64,000 nucleotides of DNA, from contig CM074514.1 of the NCBI GenBank assembly GCA_037379345.1, forward strand, positions 25,544,001-25,608,000, read 5' to 3'. Positions 2,778-59,189 of this stretch are shown here, piece after piece. Position 1 is the stretch's first letter, and each line of letters starts with the position of its first letter. Under the pieces are notes generated by a model. It was not told where the DNA came from. It saw only the letters and a program-made list of their open reading frames with translations, and ran no database searches. A program made the position numbers and the translations under genes. The stretch is from Perna viridis. Lineage: Eukaryota.

Positions 2778-2812
<35 letters not shown>

Positions 2813-22445: not shown

Positions 22446-22505
22446 CTTGTTTACTTTTTTGAACAGTGTCAGGGGTAGTGAGTAACAGAGGGAATGTCAT
22501 AACAA

Positions 22506-25500
22506 ATGTGTAGAATTTTACGAATGTCCCGAATGAGCTTGTGTGTTATTTTCAGCATTGTCGCCTTTACTTTTATTTATTTCATGTTTCCCAATCAAGT
22601 TTTTGCAGGACAGCAACCTACTTTGTTATGGTGGACCAAAGAAATATTTCCACATGTAGGGGACGGAAAGGTATTAATTAATTGTGGTAACGTGCAGTGT
22701 TATTCAACAAAAGACCGAGAAAATCTTCATGCTGAAGATACAAGAGGTATAATGTTCTATGGAACAGGAATAAACCCAACAGATTTACCTTTGCCTAGAT
22801 CTCCTCAGCATGAATGGTGTTTGTTCCACGAGGAATCCCCTTTAAACAATTATATTTTATCTCATGAAACTTTCATAAGACTTTTCAATCATACAGCTAC
22901 TTTCAAACGAGAATCTGACTATCCTATTACAACCCAAGACATATATGCATTAGATTATCTGATTGACAGAAAACCAATTGGTATCAAAGAAAAAAATTTG
23001 AAGCGCAACATTGATGACTTTGCTCCATTATTGTATGCACAGTCTCATGATGATGTGCCCTCATTTCGTGATATGTATGTCAAAGAGCTAATGAAATACA
23101 TAGATGTTGATTCCTATGGTAAGTGCTTGCACAATAAAGATCTTCCAGAAAGTTTAACAAATGCTGCAGAGTCTTTTCAAAAGGATCAATTTCTTGATTT
23201 TATAGCAAATTACAAATTCCATTTATCCTTTGAAAATGCAGTCTGTGATGACTATATGACAGAAAAGCTAATGAGACCACTTCATGTAGGATCAGTGCCA
23301 ATATATTATGGATCACCTAAAGCCAAAGATTGGATGCCAACCAACCAATCTGTTATAATGGTCAGGGATTTTAAAAGTCCAAAAGAACTAGCTGAGTATA
23401 TAAAATATCTTGATAATAATGATGAAGAGTACTTAAAGTTTTTAGAATTTAAAAAACCAAACGGCATTACAAATTCTTTGCTTATAGACACAGTGAATAA
23501 TAGGGATTGGGGATCACATGATCATAAATACTATATTTATAATACTGAAAATAAAAAGGACTATTATCAAGGATTTGAATGTCATGTATGTAATGAGATT
23601 CACAAAAGAATCAAAGCTGAAGACCAGCATACTGCAAATCCATCTACGCCAATGCCTAAACCAAAAATGGCTAACAACACTCACCTTGGATGTCCAAAAC
23701 CATTCTCTCCTTTGGAAGACCACAGATTGTAAGTACTGGCCCTATACCTACTGGTAGTTAAACTGTCATAATGAAAAGTTTGTATTGTAAGACATTTAGC
23801 TAGACATCCTATCAGTTCTTTTTGATTTTACTCAATTAAGTATTATTCCTGGAATGGAAAATTTTTGCTTCACAGTAGGTTTGTTTGTTTTTTGTATTTT
23901 ATCACTCAAACAGGCCTTTAACAAACTCAGTTTGTAGTCATCAAATGGACTGGTAAAACAGTATGCTGTTTATTGGTCATTATGCAGGTCATGTTTTATT
24001 GTACTCCAAGCTTTGCTTGATGTTGCCTTGCAAGCTATTGTCTGACTTGGTGTCATCTTTGCAGTATGGATATTGCCAAAAAATGATAACGAAGCATCTG
24101 TAATGGGACAAATCAAATACGTATAAATCCGAGTGCATGGTCTGAACGTGATGGTAGGACACAAAGACGATCTACACACACAATGTAGCGAATCGAATAA
24201 CATGGACTGTATAATGATTGAAGAGACTTAACATTAAAAAAACAACAGTGCTAGCAATGTGAACTCCCACAACAAAAACAAAAATAAAAAAAACGAGAGT
24301 GACATCAGGTGCTCTAGAAGGGTGAGCAAGTCATACTCCGCCAAAGGCACCCCTCATATTGCAAGTCGGTCAGTATAAATCGGTAGTAGTCTAGCAACAA
24401 GAGCGTGACTCCCCCGACACGAGTCACAAAGGGGTCCAATCAAAAACAACTCACACTTAAGCGAGATCATTCAATTCAACAAGGGTTCATGTTGTAAATA
24501 AAGTAAATGATAATTCCACTTGTGTATGTATACTTTCCCGATCATTTGAACTTGATATATCGCAAAACTGACAGTGTCAAAATTCACTTGACGATATGAA
24601 ATGTATCGCTGTGTAATTTTAATGCCCTCACATGTAGGTTGTGTGATTAGAAAATGTAATTGGGAAATTCAGTAGTGAATCATATGACCTAGCTGCTTTG
24701 ACTTGCTCCAATACAATTTGTCAAAGGAGCTATATCATTGCAGCTAGTAAGAGTCGAATTCAGTAGGTTGTCAATCCGCTAAGATGTGGAATCTTGTCTC
24801 ATCTGTGAGATAGAAAACTTCATATCAGTCAATCAAATTGTGATGACGACTGTAAAACTTCTATGGTGATGACATTAACAAAGGCTGGTTTGCAAGAGAA
24901 GTTTTTATTTGTTAGTATCTGTGCTCTTCATAGAAAGTCCGTGCAGTGATCACAGACTCGGCAGTAAAGGACCAGCTTTGAAAAATATATAACACATGCT
25001 GGAGATGTTGGTATATTGCCATAAAGAAAGGGAAAGTTTACAACTGGGAAGTCAAAATTATCACGTTTGTCATAAAATATCGATTTCAAACGTTCTGCGT
25101 GAAGGAATAGAATTCCAACCTCCCTCGTTGTAGGAGTTGTTTACAGAGAAATACATTACATGCGTGTAAAAAATTCTTACGAGTTTTACTATTTATCAGA
25201 TTAAATTAAGTTTGTACAATTATTTCTAAATTGCAGTCAGAGTGCTATTTTGACAGTCTCGATTCTGGAGTCAAATGGATATTCTTGCCATACTGTCTGT
25301 CGTAAATGTGATTTTTATAGGACCGGAAAACTTGCGGTCATATAATGATATGGCGCTGCGTCGTCCGTAGACACTTGGTTTTCTTGCGATTACTTTAGTT
25401 GGGGTTTGCCAATTGTTATGAAGTTTGATATGATTTTACTAACTTCTAAAGGACGGTTCCTTGTTTATTTGGAGTTTGTGTCCCTTTACCGTTTTAGTAG

Positions 25501-28500: not shown

Positions 28501-29058
28501 ACTTTAACCAGGTAAGCGATTCAGGCTCTAGGGAGCCTCTTGTCAATTTGGTCTGGGTTTGATAATTTTATTTGAATTTTGCGCAAAACAGTGTTCATAT
28601 GAATTGTTAGTCCCTATATATGCTTAAGTGTGTCAAAACTAATATTGTGTTCACACATGCCCCAACTTTTCGGGGTTCGACCACTGCGAAAATTTTTACG
28701 TTCATTAAAGTTAATTTTGTTTAAAATTCGTGCTCTTTTAAGCTCACGTTCATCAAAGTTAAGAATTTGTCATTCCCTGTCCCATATGGTGCGTAAACGC
28801 TAGTTTTTGTTTTTATTAAAATTTGTTGCATTGTATTTCTCTATAAGATTTATTTTACAACTGATATGATCAATGATCAATTTATGTTCTTTTTTTAGGC
28901 CTCAGACTCATTGGGAATTTACATATGAAGACACAAAAACAGTTGCTGAGGCGGTAGTTGAAATGTTGAAACAAGGAGAAAAAGATCCATCATTGATAAA
29001 TATGTACTATAGAAGTATATTGAAAGAAAAAAAACCTCATGATGCTAGTGAACTCTGA
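22506..29058 (+). CDS. FUT11: FUT10/FUT11-type GT10 fucosyltransferase, two exons (22506-23728, 28899-29058), about 460 aa
   Basis: N-terminal TM segment, LLWWT, DLPLPRSPQHEWCLFHEESPLNN, FNHTATF, and the alpha-1,3-FucT motif YKFHLSFENAVCDDYMTEKLMRPLHVGSVPIYYG. Donor TT|gtaagt at 23729 joins in phase to ttttag|G at 28899. FUT10 versus FUT11 is not resolvable in an invertebrate; the symbol follows linkage to SEC24C. Confidence 0.9.
24230..25140 (-). mobile_element. Old, degenerate Penelope-like retroelement fragment
   Basis: Minus strand retains a decayed YDKRDNFDFPVVNFPF motif (about 25030-25075) and parallels the better copy at 26967-28040. Confidence 0.65.
25310..28690 (+). mobile_element. 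Nested cluster of Helitron/Helentron-associated non-autonomous repeats in the FUT intron
   Basis: Family A copies begin ttagctcac...ggccatgtga...gtccgtcgtcgt (25587, 26126); the second ends caggtaagcgattcaggctctagggagcctcttgt (about 28543). They interrupt a family B element whose pieces (25310-25585, 26009-26125, 28544-28690) match the copy at 57170-57775. Confidence 0.65.
26967..28040 (-). mobile_element. Penelope-like retroelement 3' fragment with frameshifted reverse transcriptase
   Basis: Minus strand reads MLEFLIDNIFVQCGG, IPMGTNCAPLLADLFLHSYEADF, SYLDL, KLYDKRNDFPFRIVNFPFICGNIPSAPAYGVFISQLIR. Its 3' non-coding end recurs at 51435-51715. Confidence 0.85.
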
Positions 29059-30061
29059 AATTGGTGAATAGATGGTTCAAAATTAGTTTAATTTTTTTTT
29101 TTTCGTATGACAACCCTAAACAAAGTCTTAATTATGACAAGTATATAAATTGCGTGAACACACTTCAGCATTAAGTATGCGTGGAATGATGGCTTGCTGA
29201 AGAGAGATAAACTAACACATTCCGCTTCGTATTAAGAGAAGAAAAAAAAATAACCAATGACAATCAAAAAGGGACAAGGCTGGATTATGAAGGATTTTTG
29301 GCTTTTTTTAGTTTGTTTATGCTATTTTAAGATGACTGTATGTCCTCATGTTGTTTTGTTACATTGTAAATTTTGAATCATTGATATGAAATCCTTCTAA
29401 CTTTTTAATGATTGTCTCAATGTCTGTATACTTTTTGATGAAAATTTGATTTTTGTATCTAAGTTCTTGAAACTTCGGTGGATTTTTTATTGTGCACAAC
29501 GTATATTGAGAAGACGCCTTATTGTATGTTTTGGAAGTCGTTTAAACTTTACAGTTGATAGTTATGATGATCTCAGTGTCTGCATACTTTTTGTTCAAGA
29601 TATACGGCTGCTGTTTAGTTTACTCCAATGCGACGGCAGGTGTATCAAGTGCTAATGACACACATGATTAGTTACTACTATTAAAATGAGACATAATGCA
29701 CCTTTAATGTGATAAAGTAAGGTCTGAAATTATTGAAGAGAACCACTTATTTATTTTCGGTTGGTCTTAAATGCATCAGTTTTTTTTCTCTCAGACATTT
29801 CAAGTACATAAATGAGCTTAACGGGTTTAATCAAATTTCTTTATTTTTTCAATCAAACAATGTATGTTATTTGCAGTTATGTATTGTTTTTATTTGTGGA
29901 TATGTATTTCAAAAATGCACGATCATTTACTTGTATATACAAATGTGATTTATACTTATCACTATTATCAACCCTAATTTTATAAAAATATACAATTCTG
30001 TTTTCTTGCACATTTTTTGTGTCCTGTATAACTCTGGCATTTCATTTAACGATGAAGACTC

Positions 30062-30205
30062 AGTAGTATCAAAAGGCCGATTCTGCCGCACTTGCCATTT
30101 TCAAGGGGAAATCCTGCATAGGGCCCCCAACCCCGACGGCCAAATGCAAACGGACGGCATTCCTATTGAGCATAGGGTAAATACGAGAATTATGTCTTTC
30201 GTACA
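30062..30205 (+). repeat. Polinton left terminal inverted repeat
   Basis: Reverse complement of 43083-43226 apart from 5 substitutions. Confidence 0.95.
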
Positions 30206-33200
30206 AAGCATAAGTCAGATCGCCCCAGAGGATAGTGGGGATGTGGATAAGGACACCTTAAAGGGAAGGATGTCACAGATTGATACAAATAAAAATATGA
30301 CATCCGAAAGAAATATGATGGATTTCTTTCGGGAGAATGAAAAAGATTTGGAGGATAGCACCCCAACTCCGCAAAGGCAGCAGCAGTGCTGCAATGCCCC
30401 CAACCTGACGCAGGTGGATGAACACACCACGCAGTGTCAAAATTGTGGTGCAGAGGTGATGAAGCTGCGATTTGAGCATCAACCAGGGGAGCAGAAGACC
30501 ACCTGCGGCGTCGAACTCAAGAGGAAGAAGGGGTAGTTCTGCAAGAGCAAGCCCGGGAAGGATGGTCTCTGCTGGAGACATAGCAGGCAACCACGTCAGC
30601 AGGAGGAGGAGGTTATCCCAGTCGAGGGTAAGATGGTGGTGAAAGAGACCATGAAGACACTCCGTCAAATAGCTAAGGACGAGGGTCTGAGGGGGGCCAG
30701 TAGGAAGAACAAGGAGGCCTTGGTGAAGCTCATCGAGGAAAAAACCACCCGTAGATTTGAACGCCAGAAAGTCTTCAGCAAGAAGCAGCTCAAAGCGCTA
30801 GCAAAGAATCGTGGTCTCACCAAGTACTCCCAGCTCAAGAGAGACGATCTGCTCCAGCTGGTTGAAGAGAACATCAAAAACGCCCCAGCTGAGGATGAGA
30901 TGAAGATCTCGTCGATAGACGGCAAGCTCTGAACTGTGTATTTGGGTCTCACTAACCACTTCTAACGTTTCCATTACTTTACATGTTAAAAAAGTAATTT
31001 TCAAAGTCTGTGAATTCCCAGGACAAATGACATCTTAAAGTTCATACCATTGTGAAGCTTGGAAAGTAAGGCTTCCAAAATCATTATGCTAATGGTACGA
31101 TGATAGTAGAAATTCTTCACAAAATTTACTTGAATAAATAATACTGAAAATCCACATTTTTACCTGTTCTGCTAACTGACAGCATGGAGGCAAATTACTC
31201 ACACATGTAAACAATATTCATACACTTTTGTAGTTAATTACATATATGATTTTAAAGTACACATTCTTAGCTTTATTTTGACTACTTTTAATCATAATAC
31301 ACACAAATAATGCACTTACAATGCATAAGTCTAGGTTCAGTGTGTTTTTGGTACTACATTGGGGGATGGCCATTTGACCTGGAAGTGGTTAGTGAGACCT
31401 TGGCACGGTCGTCATCGAACCCGCGAAGCAGCACGACGTGGCCACTTTTCTGAAGGTAAGTCGGAGCACCGTCACCACAACCATCGCAGATGGGCTTGTC
31501 CAAAAGCAGGGATTGAAGGTGATCTTGGTGCTTCTAGTGGAGATGGTGAAGACCAACCCCGCGACTGGGGAAAATACCTACGTCACCCCCTACTTTCGAT
31601 CAACCCTCAATACCCTCACACAGTCATCCGACCTCGAATTGGAAATCGACTTCATGATGGGGAAGATCAGGGTAAGTATGGCAAAGTACATGCGCGATGG
31701 GAGTGGATGGACGTTCGGACGCATCGAGAGGCTAGAAATCTACCTCAACCAATTCAAGCCGCTCAAGTGGGGTTCCTTCATTCCGACTCCATCAGCACTC
31801 GCGAAAAAGAAGGCGATCGTCAACGTGAAAAATGAAGATGATCGCTGCTTCCAGTGGGCGGTGCTGGCAGCCCTACATCATGAAGAAGTCAATCAGAAAT
31901 CAGCCAACCTCAGTTTGTATCTCAGTACAAACCATGGACAGGGGAGCTCAACTTCGACGGCATCGATTTCCCAGTCTCTCACCGGGCGATCGACAAATTT
32001 GAGAGGCAGAATCCCACCATCAACGTCAACGTCTATGGGTTTAATGGGGTGAAGAAGGGTGAGGATGGTGAATAGGATCTCCAGGTTTACCCACTCAAGA
32101 TATCCAAGAATACGGGTCCCACCCACGTAGATCTTCTCTCCCTGACTAGCGAAGATAAGCAGCATTACTGCTGGATCAAGAGCCTCTCACGACTCTTGAG
32201 CTCCAAAATCTCAGAGCATGGTCACAAGCTCTTCTGCCGCAGATGCCTTTCCCACTTTTCCAGGCAGGACATCTTGGACGAGCACATGGAGTATTGCACC
32301 CAGAAAGAGGCGGTCAGGATCGAGATGCCGGAAGAAGGAGCCACCATAACCTTCCATAACCTCAAGAAGATGATGAGAGTCCCCTTCGCGATATACGCGG
32401 ATTTCGAGTGCTTCACAGAGAAGCTCAACACCTGTCAGCCGGATCCATCACACTCCTACACGAAGGCCTATCAACTGCAGCGACCCTCGGGTTTCTGCTA
32501 TTACGTGAAATACGCTCACGGCGACTACAAAGATCCAGTCGTCTACTGCGGGGAGGATGCGGCCAAGAAATTTGTGCAATGCGTAGAGGAAGAAGTGTGC
32601 CCCATCTCCAAACTATACAAGGAGAATAAGCCCGTGGAGATGACCGACGACGATAAGGCGAGCTTCGAAGCAAGCACGCACTGCCACATCTGTGGCAATG
32701 CATTGAGAGGGGATAAGGTCCGGGATCACGACCATCTCACCGGGAAATATCGCGGCGCAGCGCACAACCAGTGCAATCTGGATTTCCAGCTTCCGAAGCA
32801 CGTCCCCATCTTCTTCCACAATTTGAGCGTATACGATGCTCATATCTTCGTCAAGGAGCTTGGCCACACCGAGGGTAAGATCAACTGCATCCCTAATACC
32901 GACGAGAAGTATATCAGCTTCTCCAAGCAGGTGGACGATCTGGAGATGAGCTTCGTCGATTCGTGCAGGTTTATGCTCAACAGCCTGGATACCTTAGCTA
33001 AGAATCTCACCCCGACCAATTCGCGACCGTGAAGGCGAGATTCGGCGATCGCCACGAGCTAATGATTCGGAAGGGGGTATTTCCCTACGATTATATGGAT
33101 GGACCGACCAAGCTGGAAGAGACTCAGCTCCCAACCAAAGAAGCCTTCTTCAGTACGCTCTCCGGAGAGCATATCAGTGATGAGGATTACGCACACGCTC

Positions 33201-34747
33201 AGAGGGTCTGGGAGAACTTCGGGTGCAAAAACATACGCGATTATCACGGCCTCTATCTCGAGACTGACGTGCTGCTGCTGACTGGCATCTTTGAGGATTT
33301 CTGGGATATCTGCTTGACCCACTACGGACTCGATCCCGCCCACTACTTCACATCCCCCGGGCTATCCTACGACGCCGCCCTCAAAACCACGGAGGTGAGA
33401 TTGGAGCTGCTCTCCGATCCGGACATGTTGATGATGTTCGAGAGGGCAACCAGAGGGGGTGTCGCCATGATCTCCCACCGCTACGGCAAGGCCAACAACC
33501 CCTACATGACCACGTACGACGCCTCCCAGCCCACCAAGTATCTGACCTACCTCGACGCAAACAATTTCTACGGGTGGGCGATGGCGCAGTCCCTTCCAAT
33601 GGGGGACTTTGAGTGGATGGAGCCGGAGGAGATCGAGAAGATCCTGGAATATCCCGACGACCACGAGTACGGCGCCATTGTGGAATGCGATCTGGAATAT
33701 CCTCAAGATCTTCACGACGCCCACAAAGACTACCCTCTCGCGCCCGAGAACGTGGAGGTCGGCAAAGTGCACAAGCTCGTGCCTCACCTGGACAAGCGTG
33801 AGAAATATACCCTTCACTATCGAAATCTCAAGATGTATCTGGAGAGGGGGATGAAGCTCACCAAAGTCCATCGCATCATCGGATTCAGCCAATCTCCATG
33901 GCTCAAGAAATACATCGATCTGAATACCACTCTTCGCGCCCGGGCCAAGACCGACTTCAAGCTCATGAATAATTCGGTCATCGGCAAGACCATAGAGAAT
34001 ATCCGGAAGCGCGTCGACGTCAGGCTGGTCACCACCGAGAAGCAGGCCCTGAAGCTAGTGGTCAAGCCCAACTTCGATCGTCGCGTCGTCTTCACCGAGA
34101 ATCTAGCAGCCGTTCATATGAAGAAGACCAAGCTGAAGTTTGATAAGCCCGTCTACCTGGGAGCGTGCATATTGGACATCTCGAAGCTCCTTATGTACGA
34201 CTTCCACTACGGATTCGTGAAGGAGATGTACGGTGATCGTGCCCGACTACTTTTCACCGACACCGATAGCGTGGCCTATGAGATCCAGACCGCCGACTTC
34301 TACAAGGATATCGCACCGCACATGCAGGAAAAATTCGATACGTCCCACTACCCGGCCGAGTATCCCTCCAACATCCCCACCGGCGTGAATAAGAAGGTCA
34401 TCGGGATGTTCAAGGACGAATGTGGTGGTAAGATCATGACCGAATTCGTGGGGCTCTGGGCGAAGCTATACGCCTTCAAGATGGATGACGGTCAGACCAC
34501 CAAGAAGGCGAAGGGAGTCACAAAGAGCGTCATCAAGCGTAGCATCGCCTTCGAGGATTACAAGCGATGCCTTGAGACTCAGCAGGAGATCCACCGACCG
34601 ATAAGCATCCTTCGCAGCCATCTCCATCAGATCTACGGCGAGGAGATCAACAAGATCGCTCTCTCAGCCAAGGACAATAAGCGCCACATCCTTCCCGACG
34701 GCATCAGCTTCCTCGCCCACGGACACTATCGAATCACTCACGGGTGA
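30192..34747 (+). pseudogene. Protein-primed family B DNA polymerase with long N-terminal extension, disrupted
   Basis: Exonuclease motifs IYADFE and FHNL; EndoVII-like HCHICG...RDHDHLTGKYRGAAHNQCNL; RKGVFPYDY; polymerase motifs YLDANNFYGWAM, KLMNNSVIG, FTDTDS. The N-terminal part carries Zn fingers and two Rho-N/HEH-like repeats; that it belongs to the same gene is inferred. Lesions: TAG at 30534, TGA at 30930, MITE at 30945-31399, frameshifts near 31900 and 33020. Confidence 0.93.
30945..31399. mobile_element. AT-rich MITE inserted in the Polinton polymerase gene
   Basis: Perfect 18-bp TIR GGTCTCACTAACCACTTC / GAAGTGGTTAGTGAGACC; TTG on both sides (30942-30944, 31400-31402) as a likely 3-bp TSD. 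Confidence 0.88.
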
Positions 34748-34749
34748 GG

Positions 34750-34917
34750 ATGCCCATCCCATACGAGATGGTCGACTATCTGCGGCCGGAAATTCGATAT
34801 AATACCGATGAGCTCCAGCGGAGCGGCGACGTGGTCTGCGGACACTTTAGCCTGCACGTCCTGAAGATCTTATCGGAAGGTCGGACGCTTGAGGAGATCG
34901 TCTCGGACTATAGATAA
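34750..34917 (+). pseudogene. C-terminal half of an adenain-like maturation cysteine protease
   Basis: Below the ORF-track cutoff. Translates MPIPYEMVDYLRPEIRYNTDELQRSGDVVCGHFSLHVLKILSEG...DYR*, with the Q-x6-CG catalytic-Cys motif. The upstream His (HW) and YFDS motifs are absent. Confidence 0.75.
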
Positions 34918-35346
34918 ATGGATAAGTTTGGATCTCAATCGAGAAAGCGCATGCCCGTCTGGCGGATGCTTCAGGGTCTCAATATGAACGATAATCGGAT
35001 CACTAGCCTCGGTTTGCCCCGATACAGCTCAGACGCCGTGACGAAGCGATGGGTCAGCCAACAATTGGAAGACAGCATGAAAGACATCGATGAGCTAGAT
35101 TCGGAGATTAAGCAGATGCAAAAGGAGTATGACGCATCGATCAAAGACCTGACCAAAAAGCTGATGGCCAAAGTCGATAAGTCAGACAGCGGCAAGGTGA
35201 ATTCGGATCTAGACATGCAAAAATATCACCTGCTAAATCTCCCACTCCCCCGGACTGATAACGAGCCCATCACAAAAGCACTTTACGACGGCTTGAAAGA
35301 GGATCTAGACGCATTAAGGCTCTTCGTCGAACTGAAGCATGCGTAA
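34918..35346 (+). CDS. Polinton protein with two trimeric-fibre neck-like motifs and a coiled coil
   Basis: LNMNDNRITSLGLPRYSSDAVTKRWV and LDMQKYHLLNLPLPRTDNEPITKALYD flank a heptad-rich segment; preceded by TATAGATAAATG. Confidence 0.7.
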   Translation: MDKFGSQSRKRMPVWRMLQGLNMNDNRITSLGLPRYSSDAVTKRWVSQQLEDSMKDIDELDSEIKQMQKEYDASIKDLTKKLMAKVDKSDSGKVNSDLDMQKYHLLNLPLPRTDNEPITKALYDGLKEDLDALRLFVELKHA

Positions 35347-35353
35347 ATCAAGA

Positions 35354-35385
35354 CTTTCTGGTCTCCTTTGATCGAGACCGGAAAG
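35354..35385. terminator. Hairpin between the convergent fibre-like and integrase genes
   Basis: CTTTCTGGTCTC-(8 nt)-GAGACCGGAAAG, 12-bp stem with one G.T pair, in the 50-bp gap between the two stop codons. Terminator role is inferred. Confidence 0.5.
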
Positions 35386-35396
35386 CCTGCTGGGGA

Positions 35397-36323
35397 TCAT
35401 TGCAAGTCGGACTCCTTGATCCAGGAATTGAATTCTTTGGGGTAGCCTCTCCACTTGACGCAGATTTCCTTCGTCCCTCCTCGGGTACGCCGGCGCAAGA
35501 CTTTCTCGATGCGATATATATCCTGGTCGGTGTGCTGGAGCTAGGGCTCATAAAAGGATCCCTTGATTTCCTCACCCTCATAGTCTTTGAGGCGATAGGT
35601 GGGCGGCTGCATCGCTAGGGTCTGGGCGATGGTGAGACTTCCTCCGTCCAGCGCGGAGTATATCCCTTCTCGAAGATGCCCTTCTTCCTGGTGATCTGGA
35701 CCTTATCGCCGACGTTGAATCGCTGAGGCTGCATGGGTGGGAGGTCTCCGTAGAGATTCCAGAAGAACTTTGACTCGTGCTCTTTCTGGCTGGCGGCGGT
35801 AGGTGTCATCTTGATGGATTGATGCTTTGTGGGATTATACTGGCGGGCGAGATCGTCCAGGACGGGAAGGTAGGCCCGCGTGTAATTGGCCGAGAAGTAT
35901 TTGAACATCTTTTCCTTCATGGTACGATTGCAGCGCTTCAACACGCTCGATTTTTCCTCGTTCTCGGTGGAGTAGAGATCGACGTCGTGCTTCCAGAGCA
36001 GATCCTTCCTCATGATTGTAAAATTCTGTGCCCTTATCGGTCCATAGCTTCTCGGGCGTGCTATCCTTGAAGACGGTCCGGAAGGCATCTCGTATCGTGG
36101 CGCCTTTCTTATCCTTGAGCGGTACCAACCAGCCGTACTTAGAAAAGACGTCGATGATGCTCAGGAGATACTAGAAACCTCGGTTATCGCGGGTGAAGGC
36201 GCTCATATCCACGAGATCGGCAGCCCAGGTCTCATCCACCCCACCTACCACCACACGACGCTTCTGAAATTTGCGTCGGACTGGCTTATGCAGCTCTTCG
36301 GCTAGTTCGTCCGACCATTGTAC
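35397..36323 (-). pseudogene. Retroviral-type (rve) integrase with C-terminal chromodomain, disrupted
   Basis: WSDELAEELHKPVRRKFQKRR, ETWAADLVDM, IDVFSKYGW, LWTDKGTEFYN, EEKSSVLKRCNRT (expected catalytic E is K), FEKGYTPRWTEE, chromodomain VKWRGYPKEFNSWI. In-frame TAG at 36171-36173 and frameshifts. Confidence 0.93.
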
Positions 36324-36815
36324 TTTTTTTCTGCACTCCCAGCCCAAATCGTGCTTTGGTGCCGATGATGGACTTGACGATGCTGCGGTCCATGCGCTCC
36401 CGGACGGTGGGATTGGGAATGGCGTCCAGTGAGGCTAGCATAGCCTTATCGCAGATGGAATTGCGAGCGGCAGTATCCTTATGCTTGGCGTAGCAGAGAT
36501 CGTGCCGATAGGGGGCCTGATCCACCCGATTAATGGGCTTCGACCAAACCTTGGGGGTGCCATCTGCATTTAAACGCTTATGGAGCTGGGTGCCCGGCCC
36601 TGTAAAATTATGCCCCGGCAGATGCACCTCCACGGGCAGATGGTTGACCATCTTATTTACGAGCCCCGCACCCTCGCTCCCTCGGAGGAACTGAGACTTC
36701 CTAGCCCCGCATACGGCGCATAGCCCACCCTTCGCCGCCTCCCATTGCTGGTGGTGGTCTCATAGCGACTTTCTGTCTCGGTCGGCCGCTTGCACTTCAA
36801 GCAATACATTCCCAT
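36286..36815 (-). pseudogene. Zn-ribbon plus parvovirus-VP1u-like phospholipase A2 domain (PLA2X-type) protein
   Basis: ATG at 36815: MGMYCLKCKRPTET...; after one frameshift near 36720, CAVCGARKSQFL...HLPGHNFTGPGT (Ca-loop-like)...PINRVDQAPYRHDLCY (catalytic HD). Confidence 0.85.
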
Positions 36816-36828
36816 TTTATATAGATAA

Positions 36829-37589
36829 ATGGACGTTGAAGACCTTACCTACGATGAACCCACCGCGAGTCGTCAGCATAACCACTTTCTCCTCCCGCAG
36901 CGATCCATCCGAAGTCTGATCATCGGGAAGTCGGACTGTGGCAAGACGACGCTGCTGAATAACCTCCTCCTTGGCAATGGATGGCTCGACAACGATCGCC
37001 TCAACGTCGTCGGAAAATCCACCAGCCCATCTATCATCTGCTGTGGCAGGCGCTGGGAAAGGGGTTTTCGAAAGACGATATCCGCGACTTTCTCTCCATT
37101 AAGGATCGCTACCCCCACTCTTTGATTGACGTGGTGCAGATAATGAAGCCGTCGACTAAGCGTAGCGGTATAGAACTTTTCTTCTTTGAGCAGGCGAGCG
37201 ATGTGCCGGATCCTCGAGAGCTCGATCCCACCCGCAAGAACCTCATGGTCTTCGACGACTTGATGCTGAGCAAGCAGAGCAAGTGCGAAGACTACTACGT
37301 TCGCGGTCGTCATAATAACGTGGACTGCTTCTACCTCTGCCAAAATTACTTGAAGCTCCCGCGGCAATCGATCCGGGAGAATGCCAACTTCATCTGCCTC
37401 TTCGAGCAGGATGCTAAGAATCGCGATCATATCTGCCGGGACCATTGCGGTGATCTCACACTGGCTCAATTCGATGCCCTATGCGATCACTGCTGGTCCA
37501 AGCCTCACGGATTCCTGACCATCGATCTCACGAGCCCCAAGACGGCGGGAAAATATCGATGCAATTTAGATGAATTCTATCGAGTCTAA
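36829..37589 (+). pseudogene. A32/FtsK-like DNA packaging ATPase, one frameshift near 37020
   Basis: Walker A IIGKSDCGKTT, Walker B LMVFDD, RGRHNNV, RENANF. Confidence 0.92.
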
Positions 37590-37597
37590 GATAAAGA

Positions 37598-38212
37598 ATG
37601 GATCACTTGAAGGAATTTTTCCTGGAGAATCAACGGGACTTGGATTGGGAAAATGTCCCAGAGCCCCCACGACCATCCCCTGAATGCAAGCACCAGTGGG
37701 AGCGTGTGCTTATTTACGGCGATATCCCAGGGTATGGCTGCAGTGAATGCGGAGCTGAAAGGTACGGTCGCCGCTTCGATAATCAGGATTTCGAAGGAAG
37801 GACCTATAATTTCCAGCCCTCCCGCAAACTTGAGCAACCGCCCGAACCCCAGTGCTGCATCAAGACCGTCCGTGGCCATCAGTGCACGTATCCCTCTATA
37901 AGAGGTAATGATAAGTGCAAGAGGCATTTGAATATATGCTATAGGTGCTGTGTTAAGATTTCCCGCCGCAAAGCCTGGTATCGTAACCACGAGGGGACTA
38001 TACACGGACCCAAATTCATCCCCCTCTGGCCGTCGGCCGTTAAAGTCCGAATATCGGGGGAGTACGTAAAAAGATTCCGCAAACTATTCTGTTCACCCGA
38101 GTGCTGCATGGGTAGCTTCCTCAACGCTGGCAGGCAATATTTAGACGATAAGTGGCGATGGGTTGAACGCTATGGGGCGATGGGAGGCGATGGGACGATG
38201 GTGAAGCTATAA
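37598..38212 (+). CDS. Intact Cys-rich multi-zinc-finger protein (Zn ribbon, CCCH finger, CxxC...FCSxxC domain)
   Basis: CKH...CSECG; C-IKTVRGHQC...CKRH; CYRC...FCSPEC. 204-aa ORF packed between the ATPase and the next gene. Confidence 0.75.
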   Translation: MDHLKEFFLENQRDLDWENVPEPPRPSPECKHQWERVLIYGDIPGYGCSECGAERYGRRFDNQDFEGRTYNFQPSRKLEQPPEPQCCIKTVRGHQCTYPSIRGNDKCKRHLNICYRCCVKISRRKAWYRNHEGTIHGPKFIPLWPSAVKVRISGEYVKRFRKLFCSPECCMGSFLNAGRQYLDDKWRWVERYGAMGGDGTMVKL

Positions 38213-38216
38213 ATAA

Positions 38217-39074
38217 ATGACGTTTATCAAGATCACCGATCCCAAGCAGCGTGAGGCGCTTGCTAGGGACTTGCAGGAGACCAAGCGTAGCATCCAGGCT
38301 AGCGATATGCAGCGTCGCCTAGATAAGATCTGATTCAGCCGCGATCTCTCCAAGATATTCAAGCCCGTGGTCGAGACGCAAAAGGAGACCGCCTCCCAGA
38401 TCACCAAAAAGATTGATGATATCCCACTCGCTCTACCCGCCCCGGTACCTGCCCTTTCCCCTCCTACCTCTACCGCTGAGGACGACTACGACCCACTAGC
38501 TATCGAGCAAGAATTGAAAACCAACCTAGGTCCGCGAGCGACGCACTATCTTCAGCTCAGTATGACTCCACAGGCCGACCATACTTTCGGATTGCGAGTA
38601 GAAGACGGCTCCATCATGATCGGGAGTCTGCCTGTCACCTTCGATGGAGACGATATCTACATCGATGCCGAGCGCTATAAGGGTACCCCCGGCCTGTGGG
38701 AGCTTACGGTCCTGAAGCATCCCAAAGATATCGACGAGGACTTGCATAACTATGGTGATATTCTACAAGCATCGGGTGCCATGTATCAAGGAAACTCCGT
38801 CCTATCGCGGACCTCCAAGGCCAGCAAAAGCCGGAAATGGAAGGAGATCGTCTCGTACCTCTATAAGCAAGATAAGCATGGGAGTGGGGTATCGACCGTC
38901 TTCCTTCCCACATGCTTCGACCAATTGCTGGATCGTCTCGATCTTTGCGCTGTCGCCTACCAGGCTGGAAATAATGGGTTGCGCAACAAAATCGTGGCGA
39001 TCCTCGACGTCATGAGGAAGTCCGGTCATATCAGCAGGGATGAGTACGAGAAGCTGCATCGGAAGCTCCTCTAA
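38217..39074 (+). pseudogene. Conserved Polinton protein of unknown function; premature TGA at 38331
   Basis: Starts at TATAAATAAATG (MTFIKITDPKQR). Motifs KIFKPV, DHTFGL, YKGTPGLWEL, GSG..FLP...LLDRL...AGNNG resemble a widespread Polinton family from recall. Confidence 0.75.
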
Positions 39075-39085
39075 ATAAATTTACA

Positions 39086-39406
39086 ATGCCTTTAGTAGTG
39101 AATCACGGTTATCGCCGGAGATATGCCGTCAGCGGACGAGGCCTTTTCGATACCATCGCCAATCTTGCCAAGACGTTGGGTAGCAAGGCATTGAGTGCCG
39201 CTTCCAATGCAGCTCTGAAAGGTGTGGAGAAAGGTGCGATCAAGGCCGTTGACCACGTCGTCCGTCGAGTTACTCGCAAGAAAAATGCTCCCCAAGCACC
39301 ATCCTCCAAGGTCAAGAGGACCTCACAGCAGCAGGTCCGTCTCAATAATCTCATCTCGAGTGGGGGCATCGCCACCATCCATGACTTCGTCCAGCGCTAT
39401 AGATGA
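39086..39406 (+). CDS. Small basic core/virion protein
   Basis: Arg/Lys-rich 106 aa with SGRGLF and SGG motifs, immediately upstream of the MCP. Confidence 0.7.
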   Translation: MPLVVNHGYRRRYAVSGRGLFDTIANLAKTLGSKALSAASNAALKGVEKGAIKAVDHVVRRVTRKKNAPQAPSSKVKRTSQQQVRLNNLISSGGIATIHDFVQRYR

Positions 39407-39410
39407 ATAT

Positions 39411-40670
39411 ATGATGGCTGATATGCTCACTATCACCGAAGGATTGACTTTCGACGAAAGTCTCCAGGAAAATCAGGTTCACGAATACGAACCTCAAGCC
39501 GGGGCGCAGCTGAATAATGCCAGTGCAGAGATACACATCAATATCGAGACTCAAGATCTCTTCCTCCACCCCGCCGAAAGCTATCTCTTGATCGGAGGCC
39601 GACTTCAGAAGAACGATGGCACCGCGTATGCCGACGGTGATCGCTCGTCCATAACGGCGCCATGTATCTATTTCGTAGCATCAGCTACCGACTTTCCGGG
39701 CAGCAGATCGAGCACCTCAACGATCCCGGCGTTGCCACCACCATGCTGGGTATGCTGACGTACCCCGACGACTTCTCCAAATCGCAAGGCCTCAACCAGC
39801 TATGGTTCAAAGACTCCACGGCCGATGCCGAGGCAGATAACGTTGGATTCACAGCACGCCACAGATATATCATCACCAAGCCAGTCAATAAGGGATCCTT
39901 TTCTTTCGCCATCCCGCTCAAGCACGTCTTTGGCTTTGCCGAGGACTACGATAAGATCGTCTACGGACTCAAGCACGAGCTTTCCCTGGTGCGAGGTTCG
40001 GATGCCAATGCGATCCTCCGAGCCGCCAAAGTAGTCTTGAGCAAGATTTCCTGGTTCGTCCCCCACGTCATCCCCTCCGACGAAAAGAAGCTGCGGCTCT
40101 ATAAGACCATCCAGAGCAAGACCAAGATCGATTGCGGATTTTGCATGAGGCAGTGCGACTCCATCGCCGTGTCCCAGACCTCGCAATTTCATTGGCGTCT
40201 AGCCGCTAAAAGCGGACGAGAAAAACCGCGATGGATCGTCGTCGCCTTCCAGACGGATAGGAGCAATGATCAGACGCACAATCCGCCGTCTTTGACCACT
40301 GCCGATTGCGAAATATCCACGTGACCCTCAATGCGGAGCGCTATCCCGCCGTGGATTTCAATGCCGGCTTCACCCATTGCAGGGTGGCCAGGGTCTATAA
40401 GGAGGACGCCGAATTCCGCAAGTTCTACACCATGAAAGTCTGCTGAGCAATGGTGGTATCAATCCCTCCGGCTTCATCGATCTCTATCCCCTATTCGTCA
40501 TCGACGTCAGCCATCAGTCCGAGCGGTTGAAAGAGTCGACGGTGGATATCCAGATCCGAGCCGATTTCGAGGGGAACGTCCCGGCTAATACCCAAGCCTT
40601 CGCCCTGGTCATCTCCGATCGAATCCTCCAATTCGAATCCGACGGTCAGAAGATGAGCGTCGTCTTCTGA
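39411..40670 (+). pseudogene. Double-jelly-roll major capsid protein, frameshifted
   Basis: DESLQENQVHEYEP, FLHPAESYLL, IPLKHVFGFAEDYDKIVYGLKHELSL, EKPRWIVVAFQT, LNAERYP, PLFVIDVSHQ. Frameshifts near 39650, 40290 and 40430. Confidence 0.92.
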
Positions 40671-40684
40671 GGAGGGATAGATAA

Positions 40685-41454
40685 ATGGACGCTTCACTTT
40701 TGCGGAAAATCGCCACCAATACCGAACCCAAGCATGGGTTCTCCTTCATCGTCTCTGGGAACGATAGCCAGATCTTGACCCGCTTCAATCCACCCCTCCA
40801 ATTGCGCGAGGAGAAATCTTACGAGATGACCCTAGTGAATCTGAAGACCTACTACTCCATCCCCAATATTCATGCAGGTAATAATTCCTTCCGCTACTCT
40901 CCCGATGGCGGGGCTAACTGGTTTTCCGTCGAGCTGAGCACCGGCTCTTACTGCATCGACGATATCAACGATGAGATCCAGCGGCAACTGCGGCTGCATA
41001 GGCACAAGGCTAAGGTCCTTCTCGATGCCAATCGTGCGACGCTGAGAGCAACCCTCACCCTCGCCAGAAATTATCGAGTGGATTTCGACGTGCCCAATAG
41101 CATCAGTACGGTGCTTGGATTCGAGCGCCGGACGTATACCTACGACCGAAGCACCAACGGCTACGCGGAGGGTGAGAATATCGTCAATATCATCAGCATC
41201 AATAGCATCCTGGTGAATAGCGATATCATCCACGGAAGCTACGTCAACGGCACGCAGCAGTCCACCATCTATAGCTTCTTTCCCGCTGTCGATCCGGGTA
41301 TGAAGATCATCCAGACCCCCAAGAATCTCGTCTACTTACCCTGACCCTGAGGACCATCGACCGCATGCAGACGTATCTGACCGATCAAGACGGCCGCCCC
41401 ATCGATCTGCGAGGAGAGAATCTCACCATCCGCTTCCATCTGCGCGAGGTATAA
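40685..41454 (+). pseudogene. Minor capsid (penton) protein, frameshift near 41341
   Basis: FNPPLQL, YYSIPNI, GSY.IDDIN, LGF, NSILVNSDIIHGSYVNG, IYSFFP, NLVYLP; shifted tail LTDQDGRPIDLRGENLTIRFHL. Confidence 0.9.
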
Positions 41455-41458
41455 ATAA

Positions 41459-42036
41459 ATGGATTATCAAGAGTACGGTCTCAACTTGACGAAAGGTCAG
41501 GCGGAGAAGATCCAGCGTGCGGCAAAGAAGGGTTGCCCCGTGAGCGTCCGATTGCTGCATGCAAACCTATCCGGTGAGCATAAGATGCTCCTCACTCACC
41601 GCCAGATCCAGCGCATCACCAAGCTCTTGCAGAGTGGGAAGGGTGGTATGGTCTTGGAGATGAGCCCGAAGCAGGTGAGGCATAATGTGCGGAAAGAAGG
41701 TGGATTCCTCCCCATGCTAGCAGGTCTTGCCTCTGCTGCGCTACCCATGCTGGCCAAAACCGTGCTACCTGCTTTGGGCGTGGGTGCATTGAGCGGTTTG
41801 GGTAGTGCAGCCATCCAGAAGGCTGTGGGATCCGGATTATATCTCAAGAAGGGTGGGAAAATATGCTGCGTGAAACCTCGTGGTCGTGGTCTGTATTTGA
41901 GTCCAGGCATTTTGCCCAATACATACGGTGATGGGCTATACTTGAAGAGCGGACGTCAGATCTACGATGGAAGTGGACTGATCCTTGGTCCCAATAGCCC
42001 TTCAAAAGCATCCCCATCTTGGGCATGCTCCTCTAG
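41459..42036 (+). CDS. Basic core protein with an adenovirus pX-like GGFL motif and GxGLYL repeats; tail frameshifted
   Basis: LLTHRQIQRI, KEGGFLPMLAGLA, GSGLYL/GRGLYL/GDGLYL/GSGLIL. The likely original end PNSPFKSIPILGMLL* (TAG 42034-42036) is out of frame by one base. Confidence 0.75.
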
Positions 42037-42046
42037 ATATAGATAA

Positions 42047-42568
42047 ATGGACGACGTAGACTCGGGGAAGCAATCCTACGGAGAAGCTAGAATCGAGTCG
42101 ATCGAGAAAGAGCTTGAATCCGAAAAGCATAAGTATGCTCGACTGTCGAGGAACTATAAACGAGTGGAAAAAGCGGTGTCTTTTGCTCTGGGTACCTGTG
42201 CAGTACTCAACGTAGTTTGCACCACTGGCACACTCAGCACCGCCGCAACGGGAATAGGCGCCGTGGCATGCATTCCGTTGAGCTCACTAACCGTCGTGAA
42301 TTCAATCACGATGGCGGGGTTGGCGGTGCTAGCCAAGCGCATCCGCCAAAAGCGTAAAAAGCATAAAGATACCGTGCGCATCGTCAGATCCTACCAATCC
42401 AAGATCGAAGATGCAGTGAGCAAAGGCCTGGAGGATGATGATATCGATGAATCTGAATTTGCAGGGGTTGTAAAATGTCTTAGCTTCTACTACGACGAAA
42501 AGCAGCAGCTGCGAAAACCTTCCACGGCCACCACTTTTAGTGAAGACCTTACTGCGCATGCGCCATAG
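42047..42568 (+). CDS. Polinton membrane protein with a central hydrophobic hairpin
   Basis: Coiled coil, long hydrophobic Ala/Gly/Thr segment, then KKH and VSKGLEDDDIDESEF; preceded by TATAGATAAATG. Confidence 0.75.
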   Translation: MDDVDSGKQSYGEARIESIEKELESEKHKYARLSRNYKRVEKAVSFALGTCAVLNVVCTTGTLSTAATGIGAVACIPLSSLTVVNSITMAGLAVLAKRIRQKRKKHKDTVRIVRSYQSKIEDAVSKGLEDDDIDESEFAGVVKCLSFYYDEKQQLRKPSTATTFSEDLTAHAP

Positions 42569-42667
42569 GGAGGATTCTTCCAACGCTCGCCTCGCTCGGC
42601 TACGCCTCGCTCCCCACGCTTATTCCAGAATCCTCCAGATCAAAGTTCCAAGTGACCAAAAAAAAAA

Positions 42668-42703
42668 AAATTTCCCAATCCAGTAATTTGGATTGGGAAA
42701 TTT
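42668..42703. terminator. Perfect 15-bp-stem hairpin between the convergent right-end genes
   Basis: AAATTTCCCAATCCA-gtaatt-TGGATTGGGAAATTT. Terminator role is inferred. Confidence 0.55.
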
Positions 42704-42739
42704 CGAACCCCTTACCCATAGCCTTCGATTATTTTTTTA

Positions 42740-43096
42740 TTACTTCCTCACCAGGTCATAGGAGAGGTACTGCTGCTGAGATTTCTTGCTCACCTTGAAT
42801 CCAGTGCTCTGAACGAAAGCTCCTTGCAAAGGACCCTTCTCTTTGTTGAGCGTGGGGCAGGCCTATATCCTGGTGGTCTCTCTGTCCCGATCCTTCAGGG
42901 TGAGGATACTACTTTTGCCGAATTTTCCATCCACTTCTACCACCTCCAAGATCTTATAGATCACACCGGTTGGAAAGTCCTTCCATTTGAGTGCTTCCTG
43001 ATTCTGATCCTGCAGCTTCTCCTGGAAGGCGTCTTCGCTGATGAAGCCATCCCCATCTGTGGGAATGTCAACGAATCCATTGTGTACGAAAGTCAT
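42740..43096 (-). pseudogene. Small beta-rich putative OB-fold/ssDNA-binding protein, 118 codons, internal TAG
   Basis: MTFVH...KWKDFPTGVIYKILEVVEVDGKFGKSSILTL...RI*ACPTL...FVQSTGFKVSKKSQQQYLSYDLVRK*. The frame continues through TAG at 42863-42865 (probably TGG); AATAAA overlaps the final stop. Confidence 0.65.
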
Positions 43097-43226
43097 AATT
43101 CTCGTATTTACCCTATGCTCAATAGGAATGCCGTCCGTTTGCATTTGGCCGTCGGGGTTGGGGGTTCTATGCAGGATTTTCCCTTGAAAATGGTAAGTGC
43201 GGCAGAATCGGCCTTTTGATACTACT
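43083..43226 (-). repeat. Polinton right terminal inverted repeat
   Basis: Ends ...GATACTACT followed by the TSD AGACTC. Confidence 0.95.
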
Positions 43227-44386
43227 AGACTCCGTCTTGCATGATATTTTATGACCCATATGTCTGGGATTTCATGAAATGTATTATTTTGTATCTAGCT
43301 ATCCTCTTAAATTCGATCTTGATCTATGCATATAGTGTATCAAAAACTTATATTGTGTCCACACTTGCCTCAAGTATACATAGTTCAACAGGCTGCGTCG
43401 TATCATGCAGGAATCGGCGAAGCTTTTTATTTCAAATATACACTGATGTATATTGATGTAAACTTCCTGTAAAAAATGACTTTCGTCATGAATTAGGGGT
43501 TTCAGTATTGGTATACGATCTTCCAAATTATGCTTCTTGTTGGAACATTTTTTTTTGGGGGGGGGTGGGATTACGGCCTGTTGGGGTAATGTTTTCAATC
43601 ACCCTTAGTAAATCATCTGATACTGAATTTTTTTAAAATTAAATAGTAAAATAATAATGTCTTGTCACTATTTTATGTTAGATTGCATTTAAAGTGAAAA
43701 CATTCATACATTTGTCCAAAAAATATAGACCATTTCTGTTTTTCAAAAAGTGCAATATGTTATCAGTTACACAACTGCATAAGGGGGAGATAATCACGTA
43801 CATTATTATTATTGTAATTTAGATTTGTTTACTAACAGTAAGTTTTGATATATTAGGTTCTTTAGAAATATTATTATCATTTTACATTAATATCAAATAT
43901 ACAGTTTACAAAATTTGTGAAAAGAGCAAAACAATTTTAAAAAGTAAAATTATATATTTTTGTGTTCCAACGTTGAAGAAACATTTTGCAACTGACTAGT
44001 TTACATATTTTTTTTCTTTATTACCCGATTCTTTGATATTGAAGAATAGTGTGTATATTCGTGGATCATAGTAGCAAATAAATTATATACCTATGAAGTG
44101 CAACTCAACTTGTCACTTAAAAGGGCAATGTAACACAATAATTTGCTTGCGTATGTCTTGATCTACTTTCTTGTTTTACCTTTTTGAAATGACATGTAAG
44201 TGTGTTTTTTTTCATGACGAATGATATGAAGACTGTCATAACGTTTTTGTTACTCAAGAGGTTTTGACGTTGATTCAATGTTGGTTCGCCGTAACAAAAC
44301 TCTCAAGTACAAATAACATTTACAGACAAGTTCTTAAAGAGAAACGTGAAATACATTGGCTATTCTGAATATAGTAGGGCCAACGT

Positions 44387-59088: not shown

Positions 59089-59189
59089 GTAAGTGCTTTT
59101 ACAATATTTACTTAGTAAAGGTATGTTCAGTAAAACCTGTCTAAAGCAGTCATCACACATCAGTTCCAATGTGAACACCTGTTTAAATA

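Follow-up and report, generated by a model that had tools for sequence, protein, structure and literature searches.

A broken full-length Polinton of likely mosaic ancestry, one of dozens in the genome of Perna viridis

We analysed 64,000 nucleotides of Perna viridis DNA (assembly GCA_037379345.1, contig CM074514.1, positions 25,544,001 to 25,608,000 of the forward strand), called the window here, which carry a Polinton (Maverick) at positions 30062-43226. The element is full-length and broken, and a segment of it between 37.4 and 40.35 kb likely derives from a related lineage outside the subfamily of this copy. The island of 13,165 bp has a GC content of 0.516, compared with 0.324 and 0.312 in its flanks, and a CpG observed/expected (o/e) ratio of 0.96, compared with 0.36 and 0.40; the window contains no N. 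It is bounded by two terminal inverted repeats (TIRs) of 144 bp (30062-30205, + strand, beginning AGTAGT; 43083-43226, - strand, ending ACTACT), which are identical at 139 of 144 positions with 5 mismatches. The target site duplication (TSD) AGACTC lies at 30056-30061 and again at 43227-43232, and simple arithmetic puts the chance of such a 6-bp match of the flanks at about 1 in 2,000-4,000. Published Maverick criteria are TIR ends of (AG)3 or (AGT)2 and a 6-bp TSD (PMC8097293), and both are found here. With the protein-primed DNA polymerase B (pPolB), rve integrase, double-jelly-roll (DJR) major capsid protein (MCP) and A32 ATPase described below, these ends bear out a sequence-only reading of the window, which had proposed a GC-rich Polinton/Maverick island of 13.2 kb with both TIRs and an AGACTC TSD and had placed its limits exactly.

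A single ATG at TIR position 131 (30192-30194 and 43094-43096) opens the terminal open reading frames (ORFs) at both ends of the element, and the TIR extends 11 bases past it. This ATG is kept in 30 of 30 TIRs examined, and 29 of the 30 have an in-frame ATG upstream. Residue 1 of the Mytilus trossulus pPolB aligns to the ATG at 30192. Since both terminal ORFs start at one TIR ATG and the M. trossulus protein aligns there, a single promoter, duplicated with the TIR, probably drives transcription from both ends.

Gene content was determined by a Pfam scan of 23 ORF pieces of the element and of longer ORFs from related copies in the same genome (siblings). Fifteen of the 23 pieces had no match; the others gave DNA_pol_B_2, Endonuclease_7, Rho_N, rve, Phospholip_A2_4, Pox_A32 and two DJR-like pieces, to which the sibling ORFs added a chromodomain (in the integrase) and DUF5679. 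The left end is occupied by a pPolB pseudogene (30192-34747, + strand), called from Pfam, motifs and a structural model, with an N-terminal Cys/Rho_N region, an Endonuclease_7 insert and exonuclease and polymerase motifs, the likely start codon lying within the left TIR. It is broken by an inserted transposable element, stops and frameshifts. Its PF03175 match is partial (model positions 8-183, E=8e-12), with no PF03175 match by Pfam in the C-terminal half. The model, built for the polymerase half (predicted local distance difference test, pLDDT, 83.4), matches pPolBs with a best E of 7e-41. Downstream lies the remnant of an adenain-type cysteine protease (about 34762-34905, + strand), only the C-terminal part of which is left, the 5' part being deleted relative to siblings. 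For the 137-amino-acid (aa) sibling protease ORF the three top PDB matches all come from adenovirus proteases, with E values of 0.017-0.56, and the alignments bring the His and Cys motifs into register. An open 142-aa ORF with no assigned role follows (34918-35346, + strand). The frameshifted rve integrase with its C-terminal chromodomain occupies 35400-36330 (- strand, 5' limit approximate); the rve match has E=4e-4 here and 1e-5 in a sibling, in both cases under the Pfam cut-off, and the sibling chromodomain has E=1e-8. Next to it is a frameshifted gene (36286-36848, - strand) that joins DUF5679 to a parvovirus-type phospholipase A2 (PLA2; PF08398). Within subfamily A, to which most of this copy belongs, the PLA2 gene occurs in two allele classes, about 96% and about 81% identical to this copy.

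The genes of the virion module follow mainly on the + strand. The A32/FtsK-like packaging ATPase is frameshifted (36829-37589; Pox_A32 E=2e-4 here, 3e-7 in a sibling). It is followed by a Cys-rich ORF (37595-38212), which is the most divergent gene relative to siblings and for which the ESM Atlas gave only scores of at most 0.84, and by a conserved Polinton ORF upstream of the MCP, here PY (38217-39074), with one stop and with counterparts in 61 of 80 metagenome relatives. A short ORF (39086-39406) contains a likely amphipathic, membrane-active stretch, and from a weak Antimicrobial_7 match in a sibling (E=7e-4) we infer that it is cupiennin/pVI-like. The DJR MCP gene (39411-40670) is split into four reading-frame pieces and matches PF21738. 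The model of its database relative P0001 (pLDDT 84.9) matches PBCV-1 Vp54 (E=9e-17), the mavirus MCP and other double-jelly-roll capsids; a profile search of the PDB sequences with the MCP gave nothing meaningful. BFVD holds no close hexon, and because the best identity there is only 13% the MCP class is not assignable. A gene of about 256 codons (40685-41454), frameshifted near its 3' end and found in 21 of 80 relatives, is the presumed minor capsid (penton) protein (mCP), a label resting on position, size and conservation; 14 members scanned had no relevant Pfam family, and the profile had no PDB match. Thus the virion module proposed by the sequence-only reading holds for the MCP, the ATPase and the protease remnant, and its mCP is named by position and size. 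The next ORF (41459-42046, + strand) is conserved and found in Preplasmiviricota clusters; its pX-like segment is a lead only (score 0.83; PF05829 on 20% of members), and its search against PDB sequences gave nothing meaningful. An open 173-aa ORF with a hydrophobic, putatively transmembrane (TM) segment (42047-42568, + strand) and a right-end ORF with one stop, which starts at the TIR ATG common with pPolB (42743-43096, - strand), complete the element.

This copy is dead, as had been proposed: tblastn with natural open ORFs showed the genes for pPolB, protease, integrase, PLA2, ATPase, PY, MCP (in the four pieces) and mCP to be interrupted. The 5' part of pPolB is further interrupted by a host miniature inverted-repeat transposable element (MITE) of 455 bp (30945-31399) with perfect 18-bp TIRs and a duplicated TTG (30942-44/31400-02). 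The MITE is missing at this site in the siblings aligned and is abundant in the genome (1792 candidates, 40 scored), and it was inserted after integration of the Polinton. The sequence-only reading had missed both the MITE and the multi-copy nature of the Polinton. The MITE family is young and of high copy number (455-460 bp, 18-bp TIR, 3-bp TSD, top matches 97%), and we take it to be possibly of the PIF/Harbinger or Zator type. Its members often form a tandem pair about 1047 bp apart that shares a single 3-bp TSD and so resembles a small composite transposon. Besides the window they were seen at L052-L060, L061:2583-3043 and L070:6567-7026, and the MITE has entered at least three Polinton copies independently. 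Private change of this Polinton amounts to 0.6-1.4% in most genes outside the mosaic segment, and the interval on the 5/144 TIR differences is 1.1-7.9%. From these two measures, and with an assumed rate of 2-5e-9 substitutions/site/year, the insertion is about 2-9 million years old. Private transitions affect 1.31% of CpG sites compared with 1.07% of other C/G sites, so that CpG-driven decay is slight. This, together with a CpG o/e of 0.96 in a CpG-depleted host, suggests that the Polinton copies are scarcely methylated.

To place this copy among its relatives we searched the genome with the TIR and the MCP, as the sequence-only reading had proposed, and recovered a multi-copy family. The TIR search gave 132 candidates, of which the 40 scored yielded 15 inward-facing pairs of 5.8-13.2 kb, this one included, plus singles; the MCP search gave at least 109 matches (98 of 177 candidates scored). 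Two of the 109 MCP matches cover the whole protein without a stop, whereas the MCP of this copy is in four pieces; it is not the best-preserved copy of its family. Comparisons below refer to 44 other copies, whole or partial, of the dozens in the genome; two second-half stretches fetched for comparison had no element inside. Among 18 two-ended copies the TSD is perfect in 11, has one mismatch in three and two mismatches in two, and is lacking in two with a damaged end. The TSD hexamers of these copies are all different, so the insertions arose independently. The relatives have each decayed by about 1-2%; for the 20 rows of the main subfamily, from which 5 divergent copies were excluded, private substitutions amount to 0.9-3.0% per copy, and TIR-TIR differences are largely copy-specific. 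At least three subfamilies plus one far lineage coexist in the genome. The copies L101 and L102 represent this distant fourth Polinton lineage; their MCPs are 68-70% identical to P0001 and fall outside the clade joining this family and the Mytilus MCPs.

The closest named relatives are unannotated Mytilus proteins, with pPolB identities of 85% for M. trossulus and 74% for Mytilus galloprovincialis. In unannotated Polintons of M. trossulus and Mytilus edulis assemblies (P0242, P0005, P0011) pPolB is 85% identical over the C-terminal 578 aa and has the same start, and the MCPs of the Mytilus Polintons are 82-86% identical to those of the family, next to which they branch as sister clade when MCPs are placed in a tree. 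Uninterrupted ORFs encode the M. trossulus proteins, whereas the genes of this copy are broken. A 'Mytilus Mediterranean mussel adintovirus' (NCBI taxid 2609860, under Eupolintoviridae) has been named, and a Mytilus element is labelled in the Alpha panel of Supplementary Fig. S2 of PMC8502044. Polintons of cnidarians and other marine invertebrates (Stylophora, Nematostella, Ylistrum) are more distant, with pPolB 52-62% identical. This pPolB type is very common, with 3,125 representative-library clusters at E<=1e-30; a scan of viral contigs with the MCP gave two pattern matches, neither of them confirmed, and no close relative. Among 80 metagenome loci the blocks INT-PLA2, ATPase, mCP-pX-TM and PY-cup-MCP recur, with INT-PLA2 next to the ATPase and the blocks mostly reordered: here PY-cup-MCP separates ATPase from mCP, whereas most long relatives have ATPase-mCP-pX in one stretch, and L175 has the order of this element. 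In none of the 80 loci was a match seen for the Cys ORF, the 142-aa ORF or the right-end ORF. A literature search, thin in subscription papers and Repbase, returned no paper on this Polinton family. Bivalve genomes are described in a 2026 preprint as the richest in such elements, with 107,631 viral regions of which 58.5% are Orthopolintovirales (10.1101/2025.04.19.649669), and every mollusc genome analysed is reported to carry Mavericks (PMC10294476). The rarity implied by the sequence-only reading is thus not supported, given the dozens of copies, the close Mytilus relatives, the named Mytilus adintovirus and the reported abundance in bivalves.

The element is likely an Alpha-type adintovirus (Eupolintoviridae). 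Alpha adintoviruses, as characterized in PMC8502044, have a PolB nearest to bidnavirus PolBs by BLASTP, an archetypal PF03175 PolB and PLA2X, and they share with this element inverted terminal repeats, a length of about 13 kb, PolB, rve-chromo integrase, adenain, FtsK/A32, DJR hexon and PLA2. A structural search of BFVD with the pPolB model returned as the top 10 matches MELD, parvo/densovirus-labelled, bidnavirus and adintovirus PolBs at 22-27% identity, followed by adenoviruses; a PolB nearest to bidnaviruses is thus found here by structural search rather than by the BLASTP of that paper. The element differs from the Alpha members in its weak PF03175 match, in carrying PLA2 and the pX-like segment in separate ORFs and in its cupiennin-like ORF. 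Of the Betadintovirus traits, gasdermin was not matched in the Pfam scans, the cupiennin-like ORF is weak, and the PolB does match bidnaviruses; a Beta/group-1 polymerase, guessed from the weak PF03175 match, was dropped as the pPolB model matches bidnaviruses. Vertebrate Mavericks (PMC8097293) share the 5'-(AGT)2 ends, the perfect 6-bp TSD, mostly degraded copies and purifying selection acting upon the core genes, and differ in other gene modules, in a reported constraint that is much tighter (omega about 0.001, intact elements) and in their vertebrate hosts.

Among the family copies, third codon positions hold 152 of 265 variants carried by at least three copies compared with 711 of 1874 private ones (chi-square p=4e-9). 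The ratio of nonsynonymous to synonymous differences per site (pN/pS) is 0.13-0.22 for pooled gene sets including ATPase, MCP and mCP in pairs from subfamilies A and B or both from B, 0.26-0.43 when lineages further away are compared and 0.3-0.6 for copies closely related to each other. Given purifying selection between lineages and the pattern of private variants, the source genomes were functional, and decay followed insertion.

Ancestry is not uniform along the element. Identity to the nearest siblings is 97-99% in pol, mCP, pX and TM, compared with 86-93% over much of 37.4-40.35 kb (37400-40350, limits approximate), from the ATPase end to the MCP. Inside this segment the synonymous distance (pS) to 8 siblings is 0.16-0.21 (pN/pS 0.27-0.37) and outside it 0.044-0.072, while sibling-sibling pairs inside the segment have a pS of 0.055-0.10. 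Of the diagnostic sites, 53 of 133 inside the segment and 6 of 254 outside it have the letter of the B subfamily in this copy; among the control siblings 10 of 11 have 2-6 B letters inside the segment and one has 16. The PY tree groups the copy with B (support 0.997), the pol and mCP-pX trees place it within A, and in a quick MCP tree it falls outside A. The pPolB and MCP phylogenies that the sequence-only reading had proposed therefore disagree on the position of the copy itself, with the Mytilus MCPs as a sister clade. A PHI-like test on 528 sites of 15 copies gave 0.293, whereas the permutations averaged 0.389 and went no lower than 0.366, so that none of 1000 reached the observed value. 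Reverse mosaics, with C-subfamily ends and an A-subfamily centre, were seen in L065 (G000:C2:69645083-69654745) and L091; private changes in the L065 polymerase are skewed to the third position (23/16/57). A donor of the 37.4-40.35 kb segment was found neither among the 44 copies nor among 7 database MCPs: the best match of an MCP piece among 25 copies is 89.5% aa, and the best match of the Cys ORF elsewhere is 84% at the nucleotide level (40 of 58 candidates scored). These data indicate that the family recombines, and that the segment likely came from a related lineage which evolved under purifying selection. The missing donor fits a free donor genome, and also an unsampled or lost genomic copy.

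The copy was probably left by a germline insertion from a recombining, virion-competent pool of related genomes, as one of dozens of Polintons, and a full-length, broken one. The linear genome would be copied by the protein-primed PolB from its TIR ends (after PMC11071308 and PMC8502044), the A32 ATPase would package it into double-jelly-roll capsids, the adenain protease would bring these to maturity, and PLA2 with the amphipathic peptide may aid cell entry. Before insertion the 37.4-40.35 kb segment would have been swapped in from a related lineage; the rve integrase would then have inserted the genome with a 6-bp staggered cut, giving AGACTC twice. After insertion the copy underwent neutral decay of about 1-1.7%, gained the MITE and lost most of the protease. 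Several points weigh against this account. The data, consisting of assembled contigs only, showed neither a virion nor a free linear genome nor any transcript from this copy. An unbiased scan of private changes across the 44 copies found a wider and weaker segment, 34268-40953, with a log-likelihood ratio of 13.0 compared with a permutation maximum of 9.2, and the Fisher p value is inflated because the segment limits were picked after inspection. The alignments are BLAST-anchored to this copy, the MCP tree is a quick tree only, and 44 of the dozens of copies were compared. The right junction is unbridged among the records listed of 4 of 4 runs, where a hole proves nothing. With regard to the genus, the PF03175 match is weak (E=8e-12) although PMC8502044 describes Alpha members by PF03175, that paper counts a cupiennin-like ORF among the Beta traits, and no pX domain was seen attached to PLA2, the pX-like lead lying in a separate ORF; because of the weak score and the Beta-like ORF the Alpha genus is likely rather than shown. 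Of the sequence-only reading, the Polinton/Maverick identity, both ends, the TSD, the protease remnant and the death of this copy are supported; its 'virion-forming' is a reasonable inference from the DJR model and purifying selection between lineages, with no particle or free genome seen.

The same observations might instead be explained by spread within the germline as a self-synthesizing transposon lacking an infectious stage, the mosaic having formed by recombination or gene conversion between copies, excised or integrated, in one nucleus. Dozens of copies in one genome would provide plentiful conversion donors, conversion would preserve the TSD, closely related copies have a pN/pS of no less than 0.3-0.6, and neither particle nor free genome was seen. 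We regard this explanation as unlikely, since the genes of the capsid module are under purifying selection between subfamilies, at least three subfamilies and a far one coexist, and the copies scored include no donor at the identities given above. It is very improbable that the mosaic signal reflects ancestral variation, uneven rates or alignment error in an early-branching subfamily member. The B- and C-type letters lie partly at the same sites and may be ancestral states, one sibling shows a smaller excess (16/133), and the Cys ORF alignment is gapped; but distance would then be expected along the whole length, whereas beyond the segment this copy shows 97-99% identity with the A siblings, among which it nests, and two other copies show the reverse pattern of C-type ends and an A-type centre. 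Misassembly or contamination, with a foreign viral contig joined to a host scaffold, would accommodate the unbridged right junction, yet it is hardly credible beside the perfect TSD, the host MITE inside the element, the 53-Mb contig, the many copies with TSDs of their own and a left junction carried at flank depth in runs from three studies.

For the junctions, 20 of the 24 sequencing runs listed contain the left-junction stretch, whole or in part, nearly all under one organism code. The left junction, whose spanning the sequence-only reading had made a test of the insertion, is bridged in an independent sample by one contig of run X6, which reaches 32 letters into the element and has 4 letters unlike those of the window; in runs X1 and X2 a flank contig reaches 30 letters into the element at flank depth, with a bridging rule of 31 letters. 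Spanning is thus seen on the left; on the right none was obtained in the records listed, and X6, X3 and X8 have no cover at 43229-43322. A search for an empty-site end, likewise proposed by that reading, covered the left junction in X1, X2 and X6 and found none among the 20 loose ends listed, of 69. The insertion may therefore be frequent or even fixed, though the source sample could itself be among the runs. Runs X10 and X5, putatively RNA, hold short, low-depth pieces of the family that are different from this copy.

As a single decayed bivalve Polinton this copy adds little, and its recombinant ancestry is the sole part beyond the ordinary. Exchange of genes and modules among Polintons has been described, also on a larger scale than here (10.1101/2023.08.22.554363; 10.64898/2026.10.13.758929; 10.64898/2026.07.28.741253), and the mosaicism seen here carries this theme (10.1101/2023.08.22.554363; 10.64898/2026.10.13.758929) to close relatives. 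The debate over a viral or a transposon-like spread of animal Polintons still relies on indirect arguments. Here dozens of copies that can be dated, each with a TSD of its own, together with past purifying selection and recombination, make the question testable by comparison alone, and the family draws attention to farmed animals as a place to search for free genomes. One tentative interpretation, possible though doubtful, is that the family records an outbreak of adintoviruses in mussels, in which lineages co-infected germ cells, recombined while free, integrated as mosaics within a few million years and moved between genera. If so, this Polinton retains part of a lineage that the genome does not otherwise show. 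Among named matches, the FUT11-like host gene of the window is 72% identical to that of Mytilus californianus and then 60-66% to those of scallops, which makes a mytilid other than Mytilus the likely host. As the viral proteins are 82-86% identical to Mytilus compared with 72% for this host gene, there is a hint of host switching between mussel genera, from one host gene at the protein level.

The element is located between this FUT11-like ORF (22503-23732, + strand) and a RING-CH (MARCH-like) exon called by motif only (58783-59115, + strand); Sec24-like exons lie further upstream (11284-20792, - strand). A piece of about 40 bp of a very high-copy host repeat (43334-43373), which resembles 28635-28681, is found 100 bp beyond the right TIR.

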